IMG/VR virus record: IMGVR_UViG_2548876951_000007
Direction: 5' to 3' (one strand)
Source of the DNA: a virus
Lineage: Duplodnaviria; Heunggongvirae; Uroviricota; Caudoviricetes
Length of the DNA: 7,432 nucleotides
The position numbers were made by a program, and so were the translations under genes. Below are positions 2,674-6,298 of the stretch, piece after piece. How positions within the stretch are numbered: the stretch's first letter is position 1; the number at the start of each line of letters is the position of its first letter. The notes below the pieces were generated by a model. That model had not been told where the DNA came from and ran no database searches. It saw only the letters and a program-made list of their open reading frames with translations.

Positions 2674-3360
2674 TCACTCCTTCTCTTCTTTTCCGTAGTG
2701 GAGTTGGCCAATTTTGATAAGAGGGCGTCCCTGAGATTTGCGGTGTAGATTGGTATCGCGCAGAGAATACACACAGCCACAATATTCCTGCTGATAGAAT
2801 TTTTCGCGCTTGCTGATTTCAATCATACGGGACGAGCCGCCCTGCTTGCGCCAGTTATAATCCCAGTACACCATACCCGGATAATGCGCAACAGCTCGCC
2901 GCCCACACTCGTTAATCTGCTGCATATTTTTCCAGCGTGAAATGCCCAGTGAACTGCTGATCACACTGAAACCATTTTCAGCAGCGTACAACGCTGTCCG
3001 CTCAAAACGCATGTCAAAACACATGGTACAACGGATCCCCCTCTCAGGCTCCCATTCCATTCCTTTGGCACGTTCAAACCAGTTGTCGGTGTCGTAATCA
3101 GCATCGATAAACGGCACGCCGTGTTGTTCAGCAAAGCGAATATTTTCATCCTTACGAATTAAATACTCTTTCTGAGGATGAATGTTCGGGTTGTAGAAAA
3201 AGATGGTGTAGTCGATTCCCGAGGCCTGAAGCGCCTCCATCACTTCACCGGAACATGGAGCACAGCAAGAGTGCAGTAGTAGTTTGTTTGCCCCGTTTGG
3301 GAGCTCCAATTTAGGCCGTTTGAAATCAGCAATAGTCATAAATATTTTTATTGGGGTCAT
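2674..3360 (-). CDS. queH: QueH-like (DUF208) epoxyqueuosine reductase family protein, putative Fe-S enzyme
   Basis: 228-aa ORF with an N-terminal [11 protein letters not shown] motif, a central [10 protein letters not shown] and a C-terminal EYCGCVYS. This Cys pattern matches what I recall of the QueH/DUF208 family. The start is uncertain: neither ATG 3360 nor ATG 3339 has a clear SD. Confidence 0.55.
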
Positions 3361-3513: not shown

Positions 3514-3939
3514 CTAGTAACGTCTAAAATACCTAACATTTCCTTGATAAAATGCCAGTACACGCTGCATAGCTTCGCTCTTCCGGCACTCGCGACAGAT
3601 TATGTTTAGGCGCCTGTCGTAGCGGCGTATTTCGCCGTCTGGTAATAGCCAGATAAGGTCCGGATCAACCACAGATGGTTTCTTCAGCTTTGCCCTTGAG
3701 AGTTTTTTGCGGGCGTTTTGCCAGTCCTTGCGCGCCTGCTCAGACGGGAATACTCCGTAACCGGAATTGTAAACATCACCACTGGCGGCCAGCTCCATGC
3801 ATAAACGACCGACAGACGCATGACTGACACCAATTTCATCCGATAACTGCCGAATCGTGCCTCGTCCGTTAAGGCGTACGAATTCCACGATCAGCCCTTT
3901 AATTTTTTCCCGCTCTTCTTGTGTAAAAACTTTTGCCAC
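3514..3939 (-). CDS. HTH-domain protein, function unknown (sits where a helicase loader is expected)
   Basis: 141-aa ORF starting at GTG 3937-3939, preceded by a strong SD (AGGAGGG, about 4 nt spacer), 38 nt downstream of the upstream replication-gene stop. Predicted HTH around TIRQLSDEIGVSHASVGRL; basic C-terminus. No DnaC/P-like Walker motifs. Confidence 0.5.
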   Translation of the reverse strand: MAKVFTQEEREKIKGLIVEFVRLNGRGTIRQLSDEIGVSHASVGRLCMELAASGDVYNSGYGVFPSEQARKDWQNARKKLSRAKLKKPSVVDPDLIWLLPDGEIRRYDRRLNIICRECRKSEAMQRVLAFYQGNVRYFRRY

Positions 3940-3979: not shown

Positions 3980-4942
3980 TTACCCCCTGAAGCCCGGCGG
4001 AATTTCAGTGTCCGGTTCAGAAATGTGATTCACGCAACGCTGCGCAGGTGAACGCCCCAGGCGGATAACCAGTTCATCCCATTTTTCCCGGAGTTTTGCC
4101 GGACTCATGATGTTTTTTACCCAGAACGAATCCCGCTGGAGACGCCCAAACATTTCACAAATTTGTCTGTGAGTTCTGCCATCCAGCATCCGCATTGTGC
4201 GAACGTCATTGGCCCATGCTGTCCAGTTGGGTTCTTTCGGTCTAGTGATCTCGCCATCATCGCTGGCCGCCTGCTCGTAAAGACTCACGATTCGTCCCCA
4301 GATCCACTGTGCGCACACCAAATCTTCCTGACTTCCCCACTGGCGTTTTTTCGCACTGAACACAACCGCGTCAGGGTGTCGGGTTAAAAAATCCTGTTCA
4401 GCCATCTGCGGGTCCGGTTGCGAAGCGTCCGGACAAGAAGATCTTTTATCTGACGGATCAGGTTTTAATACTGACGGATCGGGGTCAATCATCGCCCCCC
4501 TAATCGGCAGTTTTTTATCAACAGTTGATCCATCAAAATTTAACGGGTCAACCGTTGAGGGGTCAATATTTGACGGGTCAACTGTTAACGGGTCATTTTT
4601 TGCCGGGCTAATTTTTCTTTTCGGTTTATATGACTCACGCGCCGCCGCCGCAGCTGCTTCGAGTTTTTCCACATTAAGCCGATAGATATTGCTTACATTA
4701 CGCCCACCGACCTTACGCTCTTCCTTCGTCAGCCAGCCCTCTTTCGCCAGTTCTGCAATAGCCGATTTCACTGTGGATTCACTTCTTGCACCGATCTGAC
4801 GCCGGATAGTTTCAATGGCAGGCCATGACACGCCCTCGTCATTGCTGTAGTCTGCAAGACGGGCCATAACCGCCACCCTGGATAAGATCATGCCGGTGAA
4901 GGCGCACCCTTCCCAGACAAGACCATGAAGCTTGCTGCTCAT
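3980..4942 (-). CDS. phage replication initiation protein (O-like / YdaU-position), N-terminal winged-helix domain
   Basis: About 320 aa from ATG 4940-4942 (the track start at 4957 is GTG). The N-terminal segment WPAIETIRRQIGARSESTVKSAIAELAKEGWLTKEER resembles the HTH of phage/plasmid replication initiators. The central low-complexity VDP-repeat linker is encoded by the tandem 15-bp iterons. It lies immediately downstream of the YdaT-like gene, as in Rac. Confidence 0.6.
   Translation of the reverse strand: MSSKLHGLVWEGCAFTGMILSRVAVMARLADYSNDEGVSWPAIETIRRQIGARSESTVKSAIAELAKEGWLTKEERKVGGRNVSNIYRLNVEKLEAAAAAARESYKPKRKISPAKNDPLTVDPSNIDPSTVDPLNFDGSTVDKKLPIRGAMIDPDPSVLKPDPSDKRSSCPDASQPDPQMAEQDFLTRHPDAVVFSAKKRQWGSQEDLVCAQWIWGRIVSLYEQAASDDGEITRPKEPNWTAWANDVRTMRMLDGRTHRQICEMFGRLQRDSFWVKNIMSPAKLREKWDELVIRLGRSPAQRCVNHISEPDTEIPPGFRG
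4541..4615. repeat. five tandem 15-bp iterons (consensus about TRACGGGTCAAnnnT) inside the replication gene; putative origin
   Basis: GGGTCA/GGGCTA cores start at 4545, 4560, 4575, 4590 and 4605, an exact 15-bp period. A degenerate copy lies at 4481-4489. The adjacent 4505-4540 stretch is AT-rich and 4440-4530 holds four GATC sites. Confidence 0.6.
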
Positions 4943-4964: not shown

Positions 4965-5390
4965 TTAGTGCATCACCACAGCATTCCCTGCCGGGCCGCC
5001 GCGATTCATCTGGTCATACAAAACAACCGCTGACGCAACAAAATCATCGACATCCTTCACCAGCCGATCCCTCCGTTCGACGATCTCACGGTAATATTCA
5101 GAACTGTGGCTGCGCATACGGGCCACCAGCAAAGGCGGCATCGCCTTTTCGATCGCCGGTAACAGAGCCTGCATTTTTTCAACAGCATCAGGGGTGTCTT
5201 TATCCAGCCAACGGAAAATTTTCTGGGTATTACGGGCCAGGGCTTCCGGATGGCTGTCGTCGTACAGTTCAGGGAACGTCATCCCCAGTTCGAAATAAGT
5301 CCGGGCTATTTCAGCTGCAGGAACTTTCTCACCATCAGGGTATGCCCAGGCATTCATCGCCATGCGGATGTGCTCATGTTTGATTTTCAT
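4965..5390 (-). CDS. ydaT: YdaT-like prophage protein
   Basis: 141-aa ORF with ATG at 5388-5390, overlapping the upstream Cro-like gene end by 17 nt (translational coupling). Size and position (third gene after the repressor, second in the cro-side operon) match Rac ydaT. Assigned by synteny and recalled similarity, not by search. Confidence 0.55.
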   Translation of the reverse strand: MKIKHEHIRMAMNAWAYPDGEKVPAAEIARTYFELGMTFPELYDDSHPEALARNTQKIFRWLDKDTPDAVEKMQALLPAIEKAMPPLLVARMRSHSSEYYREIVERRDRLVKDVDDFVASAVVLYDQMNRGGPAGNAVVMH

Positions 5391-5697
5391 GAATCATTTG
5401 CCTCTTGATGCTTCGGGTATGATCGTTTTCGTCATTTGGTTGCTTCATCGACATATTCTGCGAATAACATGACGAGCGTCGTAAGTATGTCCAATCAACA
5501 TCAGGACGAAGTTCTTCACACAGGACACCACCTTTTGTTGCTCGTTCAATCGCAGGACATCTCTCAGCAGGTAACTGACGTACACCTTTGATCCATTGAT
5601 TTACGCTTGGAGGAGATACACCTAAAAGCCTAGCCATTGCTGATTGCCCACCGACAACAGCACAAGCTCGTTTGAATGAATAGTTATCTTTTTTCAT
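5374..5697 (-). CDS. ydaS: Cro-like HTH DNA-binding protein (YdaS-like)
   Basis: 107 aa from ATG 5695-5697 with GGAG 10-13 nt upstream; the track start at 5718 is GTG and lies upstream of the predicted transcription start. HTH segment QSAMARLLGVSPPSVNQWIKGVRQLP. Transcribed divergently from the repressor gene. Confidence 0.65.
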   Translation of the reverse strand: MKKDNYSFKRACAVVGGQSAMARLLGVSPPSVNQWIKGVRQLPAERCPAIERATKGGVLCEELRPDVDWTYLRRSSCYSQNMSMKQPNDENDHTRSIKRQMIHENQT

Positions 5698-5724
5698 CGA
5701 ATGAACTCCAAAAAACACGCAACA

Positions 5725-5821: not shown

Positions 5822-6298
5822 ATGCTTAGTGGTAAAGACTTAGGCCGAGCGATAGAGCAGGCCATTAACAAAAAAATTGCATCAGGAGCCGTCAAATCAA
5901 AGGCGGAAATCGCACGTCATTTCAAAGTCCAACCACCATCAATCCATGACTGGATTAAGAAAGGTTCGATAAGTAAAGACAAACTTCCAGAACTATGGCG
6001 TTTCTTTTCTGATGTGGTTGGTCCAGAGCATTGGGGGCTTAACGAATACCCCATACCAACCCCATCCACTTCAGATACAAAAAGTGAACTTTTAGACATA
6101 AACAGCCTTTATCAAGCCGCCTCTGATGAAAAAAGAGCAATTGTGGCTTTCATCTTATCTGGAAATGCTACGGAGCCTAGTTGGGTTGATCATGACGTTC
6201 GCGCCTACATTGCCGCAATGGAAATGAAGGTAGCTAACTATCTGAAAAATCAAGAATCAAAACGGAAAAGCCAGAACATCACCAAGACAGGAACTTAA
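5822..6298 (+). CDS. racR: prophage repressor, RacR-like HTH protein
   Basis: 158-aa ORF with an N-terminal HTH (SKAEIARHFKVQPPSIHDWIKKG), divergent from the Cro-like gene and flanked by operator clusters. Length and synteny match Rac racR. Confidence 0.65.
   Translation: MLSGKDLGRAIEQAINKKIASGAVKSKAEIARHFKVQPPSIHDWIKKGSISKDKLPELWRFFSDVVGPEHWGLNEYPIPTPSTSDTKSELLDINSLYQAASDEKRAIVAFILSGNATEPSWVDHDVRAYIAAMEMKVANYLKNQESKRKSQNITKTGT

Follow-up and report, generated by a model that had tools for sequence, protein, structure and literature searches.

A probable replication origin of lambda-like layout, with 15-bp palindromic-core iterons and conserved GATC repeats, inside the initiator gene of a Rac-like prophage of Escherichia coli

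In phage lambda, and likewise in the lambdoid phages P22 and L, the origin of replication is contained in the initiator gene, where the DNA codes for the linker that joins the N- and C-terminal domains of the protein. Lambda has four annotated iterons between these two domains; an easily melted tract comes after the repeated, dyad-symmetric sites, towards the C-terminal side, and these sites are specific to the type of N-domain, with which they are swapped as a module. The locus described here resembles lambda in these respects, with a candidate for the easily melted tract. It lies in a viral DNA of 7,432 nucleotides (IMG/VR record IMGVR_UViG_2548876951_000007, Caudoviricetes), which we call the window, and within the gene rep (3980-4942, minus strand), which is present in the list of open reading frames and, in an identical copy, as the RefSeq coding sequence WP_032352003.1. 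The gene encodes Rep, an O-like replication initiator of 320 residues, and an origin inside the gene is the type of element expected for such a gene. The best explanation of our results, to which we assign a probability of about 0.7 from comparative sequence analysis, is that positions 4440-4611, in the linker-coding part of rep, constitute the vegetative replication origin.

The iteron array occupies positions 4507-4611 on the minus strand, as delimited by repeat searches, a motif scan and the comparison with relatives. Read on the gene strand, its units are TTAGCCCGGCAA, ATGACCCGTTAA, TTGACCCGTCAA, TTGACCCCTCAA, TTGACCCGTTAA and TTGATGGATCAA, to which a degenerate TTGATAAAAAAC is added. The core of the unit is the near-palindrome TTGACCCGTCAA, of the form TTGAC-CC-GTCAA, whose palindromic core is TGA-N4-TCA. 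Four units are good matches (4540-4551, 4555-4566, 4570-4581 and 4585-4596), two are weaker (4525-4536 and 4600-4611), and the degenerate seventh lies at about 4510-4521. The unit at 4525-4536 is flipped and carries the GATC at 4527. Tandem Repeats Finder finds 5.2 copies of a 15-bp period at 4539-4616 (69% matches) and, in addition, a 30-bp super-period with 79-82% matches, and the repeat search places copies in register, at successive spacings of 15, 15, 15 and 15, between 4518 and 4607. When up to three mismatches to TTGACCCGTCAA are allowed, the window contains 15 hits, a number reached in none of 200 shuffles, and the motif scan found no other cluster of the motif in the window. The array falls in the region that codes for the interdomain linker, with the HTH_36 domain on one side and the lambda-O-type C-domain on the other, and translates as NDPLT-VDPSN-IDPST-VDPLN-FDGST-VD. 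A preliminary description of this DNA, made from its letters, had counted five iterons at a strict 15-bp period and had seen in them the code for a linker of the replication protein. The period is borne out by both repeat analyses and the linker by the pentapeptide-repeat translation; the count has to be raised to six or seven units, each of which has a palindromic core. Literature searches on this type of iteron, which included the literal sequences, found no relevant earlier description.

A promoter-like hit within the array, at 4566-4537, is produced by the TTGAC core of the iterons; it was rejected as an internal promoter, the number of such hits being within chance expectation.

A tandem pentapeptide repeat is also what would be seen if the array were only a low-complexity coding repeat, that is, a flexible linker rich in Asp, Pro and Ser that has grown by replication slippage and whose DNA has no role in cis. 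The variation in copy number agrees with such an origin: relatives have from 4 to 7 units, and among 80 viral-contig copies that are near-identical overall and have an N-domain identical to that of the window, one is short by a single 15-bp unit. The comparison with more distant relatives argues for a different conclusion. These relatives were taken from the genomes of Mixta, Edwardsiella and Erwinia (three loci, found in a genome-contig scan with the N-domain alone), from the annotated phages SfIV, phiNP, 689R6, 716R3, P7641, LLS, YeP1, Kp4866-6, EKP1 and phiP27, and from further viral contigs; the comparisons span 13 lineages and, in an extended set, 20 lineage clusters. Wherever the N-domain is at least about 50% identical, it is always followed directly by 4-7 units at a strict five-codon period. 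Among 57 distinct 15-mers from the 13 lineages, the bases T-GA-N4-TCA-A are invariant, and the core is flanked by two third-codon positions, 3 and 12 of the unit, of which the first is T in 53 of the 57 (1.63 bits) and the second is A in 50 (1.39 bits); the remaining third-codon positions of the unit carry 0.24-0.30 bits. This conservation persists despite changes in the encoded amino acids, the residues found at the motif being DPS, DAS, DTS, DGS, EGS, EAS, EQS and EPS. In Edwardsiella and Erwinia, one and the same array holds TTGACCCCTCAA (Ile-Asp-Pro-Ser) and its exact reverse complement TTGAGGGGTCAA (Val-Glu-Gly-Ser), so that the DNA 12-mer is preserved and the peptide is not. Nearly all units use TCA for Ser, a codon that accounts for only some 10-20% of Ser in the rest of these genes. 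Outside the motif the synonymous sites are saturated: when lineage groups are compared, a conserved N-domain residue has an identical codon in only 25-56% of cases. These results indicate that selection at the array acts on the DNA rather than on the peptide, and we consider a purely coding repeat very improbable. The proposal of a lambda-like origin inside the replication gene, already made in the preliminary description, thus receives strong support from a motif that is kept at synonymous positions across lineages.

Within the 80 population copies, the unit at 4540-4551 reads TCA in 79 and TTA in the window, which marks the TTA of the window as a private change away from the consensus.

The type of repeat follows the identity of the N-domain. 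In relatives with the same repeat type as the window, the N-domain is 52-77% identical to that of the window, and N-domains of at most 40% identity (Min27, SI8, ZF40 and VIM1phi2.1) have other repeats at the same place. The phage mEp460 has the C-domain of the window, with 85% DNA identity up to about 4447, and a different N-domain; its repeats differ from those of the window and are followed by a plain AT-rich tract. The junction of the module can be placed at 4400-4447 (minus strand; ...SCPDASQPDPQ...), where the sequence downstream of about 4447 is 85% identical to that of Reps with another N-domain and other repeats. Because the repeat type tracks N-domain identity, the mEp460 swap included, the N-domain and its repeats are seen to travel as a module. 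This joint movement is the classical pattern of lambdoid origins, and the same kind of inference has been made for gene 18 of phage L (PMC8022706).

The same observations bear on a second explanation, in which the array is a true binding site for Rep that serves autoregulation, copy control or the exclusion of related phages, and replication starts elsewhere in the prophage. The P1 iteron arrays located outside the origin, annotated as incA sites, behave in this way. Set against this explanation, the array, the spacer and the low-stability block described below stay joined to the N-domain, as a single module, when domains are swapped; their order is that of lambda, with iterons first and an easily melted tract on the C-terminal side; and the window has no further cluster of the motif. 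We regard a regulatory array of this kind as quite unlikely, and an origin at 4440-4611 as the better account.

The presumed opening element of this origin, which we call block 2 (4440-4480, minus strand), lies downstream of the array and the spacer in the direction of the gene. It consists of GATCCGTCAG in tandem, with an AT-rich spacer and a 21-bp period, followed by AGATCT, and it carries GATC at 4477, 4456 and 4440. Of the 26 GATC sites of the window, the preliminary description had singled out four, at 4440, 4456, 4477 and 4527, and a decamer, CTGACGGATC, repeated 21 bp apart; the four sites are where it placed them and the decamer occurs twice at that distance, at 4450-4462 and 4471-4483. 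As features of an origin the four sites are not equivalent. Every lineage examined preserves those at 4456 and 4477 by using GAT among the synonymous codons for Asp, and the site at 4440 (AGATCT) is kept in Mixta (as GGATCT), Edwardsiella and Erwinia despite changes of residue (R, G, I); the site at 4527, by comparison, is lineage-specific. In the 13 lineages, the Asp-Pro of block 2 is encoded as GAT-CC, which creates the GATC, at 28 of 28 sites, a result with which the 20 lineage clusters agree; the Asp-Pro of the iteron type is encoded as GAC-CC at 29 of 29 sites, none of which (0/29) contains GATC. In several lineages, the core of block 2 is one base away from the iteron core, and it is this base that makes the GATC. 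The GATC sites are intact in 79 of the 80 population copies.

In a nearest-neighbour stability profile, the 30-mer of lowest stability in the gene falls within block 2 in 9 of the 13 lineages. The block 2 of the window itself is only the third least stable (4441-4470). The least stable 30-mer of its rep is at 4514-4543 and corresponds to an AT-rich stretch (4505-4540; 67% AT) that the preliminary description had placed beside the iterons; this stretch is in the top 12% of the 36-mers of the window and in the top 3.7% of those in the gene. It overlaps iteron units instead of adjoining them and is not conserved, the conserved element of low stability being 4440-4480. According to this analysis, block 2 is a candidate DNA-unwinding element that may also be sensitive to Dam.

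Control of the origin by Dam or SeqA is plausible. It is also possible, though short of even odds, that the origin is correctly identified and that the GATC sites serve another purpose, either as part of a sequence recognized by Rep or a host protein through a GATCC core, or as a patch of homology for recombination. The conserved unit of block 2 is indeed longer than GATC, namely GATCC(R)(Y)(M)A(R) with an AT-rich spacer, and recurs every 12-24 bp, and the spacing of the GATC sites is without helical phasing. Positions 4400-4480 are, in addition, 88% identical to SfIV-group genes, which is above the identity of the flanking N-domain and fits a recombination linker. In favor of a role in methylation, GATC alone is invariant where the rest of the core has changed, being the only invariant tetramer across the core variants GATCCGTCAG, GATCCACAAG and GATCCGCAAG; GATC repeats in a melted region are known from P1 oriR; and an N6-adenine methyltransferase gene of the PF02086 or PF05869 family stands right after rep in several relatives.

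In these phage relatives the N6-adenine DNA methyltransferase gene comes directly after rep or one gene further (2451-3260 in L092, 2352-3239 in L093, 1235-2116 in L006 and 908-1561 in L005), and the two families to which the enzymes belong are unrelated. Adenine methyltransferase genes in this position may be linked to the conserved GATC sites of the origin. The window differs from these relatives, since its methyltransferase is a cytosine methyltransferase and is encoded further downstream.

Between the array and block 2, a spacer (4481-4506, minus strand; repeat search and relatives) contains a G-run and an isolated half-iteron, TTGACCCC, at 4481-4488. The close relatives L007 and L008 have at this place a perfect inverted pair, GGGGTCAA-TGG-TTGACCCC, that lies directly against the first GATC of block 2; the left arm of the pair is degenerate in the window (4481-4499; GGGGGCGA). 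The inverted pair might be a high-affinity site for the initiator beside the opening region.

The search for DnaA boxes gave 17, where 16 were expected, and no box is conserved among the relatives. For these two reasons, the perfect box TTTTCCACA at 4665-4673 was rejected as an element of the origin. The block 2 of EKP1 contains the DnaA-box-like TGATCCACA, whereas its counterpart in the window, GATCCGTCA, is not of this type. By eye, GATCTTTTATCTG (4440-4452, plus strand) resembles the 13-mer consensus of oriC, GATCTnTTnTTTT, and a resemblance to an IHF site was noticed in the same way.

Rep is composed of an HTH_36 N-domain, the pentapeptide-repeat linker and a lambda-O-type C-domain. The Pfam HTH_36 match covers residues 30-76 (E=2e-6), within an N-terminal helix-turn-helix domain of about residues 1-100 that is encoded at 4643-4942 on the minus strand and is presumed to bind the iterons. 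A search with the protein gave PHROG 391, 'replication initiation O-like', at 2e-115, and the C-domain can be aligned with that of lambda O. Its final 21 residues, AQRCVNHISEPDTEIPPGFRG, match the extreme C-terminus of the host primosomal protein DnaT. This DnaT-like tail (...VNHISEPDTEIPPGFRG; 3983-4045, minus strand) was recognized by matches to the PDB entries 2ru8_A, 6aep_A and 9zbt_D and to positions 159-179 of the 179 of NCBIfam NF002770. A single-sequence AlphaFold model of Rep had a mean pLDDT of 37 and was unusable.

The presence of the tail alternates with that of a P gene. In the window, no P-type helicase loader is encoded 3' of rep, and the genes found there instead are those of DUF977/LygF, QueH and a restriction-modification pair. 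The ending ...IPxGFRG is common to relatives that have no P gene, regardless of the type of their C-domain, and the tail is missing in L007 and L008, where a lambda-P homologue comes next; the Mixta and Edwardsiella relatives have a P homologue. The tail may recruit the host helicase-loading machinery in place of P. An HTH_36 N-domain together with a DnaT C-terminal motif has been reported for DopC, a domesticated lambda-O-like protein, and in dopC the authors found no iteron-like sequences (PMC5509034). The phage Rep studied here differs from DopC in having the full iteron array and a lambda-O-type C-domain.

With the anatomy, the homologies and the selection on DNA established as above, we infer how binding, opening, helicase recruitment and a methylation effect might follow one another. 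The helix-turn-helix N-domain would bind the six or seven iterons, through TGA-N4-TCA, and form a multi-protein complex like the O-some of lambda. Strain from this complex would open the adjacent low-stability block at 4440-4480, with its GATCC cores and AT-rich spacers, and the lambda-O-type C-domain would then bring in the host DnaB helicase. The DnaT-like tail may also take part in this recruitment, because no P gene is present. Transcription from a promoter on the cro/cII side would pass through the origin, as it does in lambda. Through the two or three Dam sites that are conserved in the opening block, initiation would become sensitive to methylation, either because SeqA sequesters hemimethylated DNA after firing or because binding or melting depends on methylation.

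A more specific proposal joins two of these elements: an origin gated by adenine methylation of the GATCC opening repeats, and a DnaT-like tail that replaces the phage helicase loader. The source of methylation could be the host Dam or, in the relatives, the adenine methyltransferase encoded after rep, and the copied tail would recruit the DnaB-DnaC machinery of the host. We put this combination forward tentatively and hold it, taken as a whole, to be rather doubtful. If it were true, this would be a lambdoid module that uses the epigenetic and replication-restart interfaces of the host instead of the O-P scheme of lambda.

Several points weigh against an origin at 4440-4611, or against parts of its proposed anatomy. 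With a 15-bp period, consecutive sites face almost opposite sides of the helix, in contrast to the well-studied iteron arrays, and about 12 of the 80 population copies have a core mutation (TTGCC) in one unit. The copy in the window belongs to a prophage that may be defective, and literature searches found no replication, binding or methylation experiments with this module. Block 2 is only modestly AT-rich (53-69%), and in the deepest lineages its core, GATCCACAAG, has lost the resemblance to the iteron and hence may not be a site for Rep. The GATC sites of block 2 are spaced by 12, 18, 21 and 24 bp among lineages, a variation that does not fit strict helical phasing for SeqA. The preliminary description had further presented the four GATC sites as a clear local excess. 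Their local expectation is indeed low, about 0.32 per 91 bp, but the excess is not significant when the window is scanned as a whole: in 2000 dinucleotide-preserving shuffles, at least four GATC occurred in some 91-bp span in 10%, and at least three in 41 bp in 19%.

Its genes identify the window as part of a Rac-like lambdoid prophage of E. coli, namely the immunity and early-right region. The order racR (5822-6298, plus strand), the cro-like YdaS gene (5374-5718, minus strand), the cII-like YdaT gene (4965-5390, minus strand) and then rep agrees with that of a lambdoid early-right operon. The replication module is different from that of the Rac prophage of K-12, which consists of ydaU and ydaV. 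The gene that comes after rep, DUF977/LygF (3514-3939, minus strand), matches PHROG 142, 'Ren-like exclusion protein', and occupies the place of P and ren in lambda. Downstream of the replication genes are a homologue of the epoxyqueuosine reductase QueH (2674-3360), a C5-cytosine methyltransferase (1371-2495) and an NgoMIV-like restriction enzyme (479-1492), which forms the restriction-modification pair with the methyltransferase.

The segment 4400-4960 is found in 1542 of 5426 complete E. coli genomes (~28%), including O157 and O26 strains, and the RefSeq annotation of rep in E. coli genomes is merely 'helix-turn-helix domain-containing protein'. Strain EC21Z-078 carries a copy of the rep segment identical to that of the window, in a prophage adjoining ompW; this prophage copy, otherwise identical, has other genes where the window has the restriction-modification and QueH genes. 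Another viral contig, L248 (IMGVR_UViG_2648501235_000010), is a close relative of the window, with 9 differences in 1491 bp; its end corresponds to position 4652 of the window, which is some 40 bp upstream of the array.

A defined origin and an iteron consensus would improve the annotation of prophages, given that the module is present in about 28% of complete E. coli genomes, and would make it possible to construct mini-replicons and to predict whether co-resident prophages are incompatible or exclude one another. The locus is also a clean natural case of overlapping codes, in which the same bases specify a protein linker and a cis-acting DNA element, and the constraint imposed by the DNA shows at synonymous sites. 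Should the conserved Dam sites prove functional, the replication of the prophage after induction would be tied to its methylation state, a link that is absent from the lambda model.

Compared with other known systems, the layout of the locus is closest, outside the lambdoid phages, to P1 oriR, which has iterons, a G+C-rich spacer and an AT-rich region with five Dam sites in repeats with an AGATCC core; these core repeats share GATCC with block 2. In oriC, too, GATC repeats lie inside the melted region. P1 oriR differs in being located outside repA, in its 19-bp iterons at a 21-bp period and in the DnaA boxes beside its GATC repeats, whereas no DnaA box is conserved here, and the initiators of the two systems are unrelated. 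Chromosome II of Vibrio cholerae likewise combines initiator-binding repeats with Dam sites, and the binding of RctB reportedly requires methylated iterons. In the present locus, by contrast, the main iterons avoid GATC, which is carried only by the two or three repeats downstream of them, and the chromosome II initiator is unrelated to Rep. A passage of PMC2865523 states that adenine methylation is needed for the once-per-cell-cycle replication of both V. cholerae chromosomes.

The comparison with lambda itself shows where this module departs from the scheme whose general layout it shares. The lambda iterons are 18 bp long and spaced by 20-24 bp, whereas those of rep have a core of 10-12 bp at a strict 15-bp period, and the N-domain of lambda O differs from the HTH_36 domain of Rep. 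Lambda has a plain AT-rich tract, in an origin segment without GATC, where the window has a tandem GATC block; origins of the mEp460 type also have an AT-rich tract at the position of block 2. Lambda has a P gene, and the window has none and a Rep that ends in a DnaT-like tail. What is new relative to lambda is therefore the 15-bp iteron with its palindromic core, the conserved Dam-site repeat that takes the place of the AT-rich tract, and the DnaT-like tail in a module without P.

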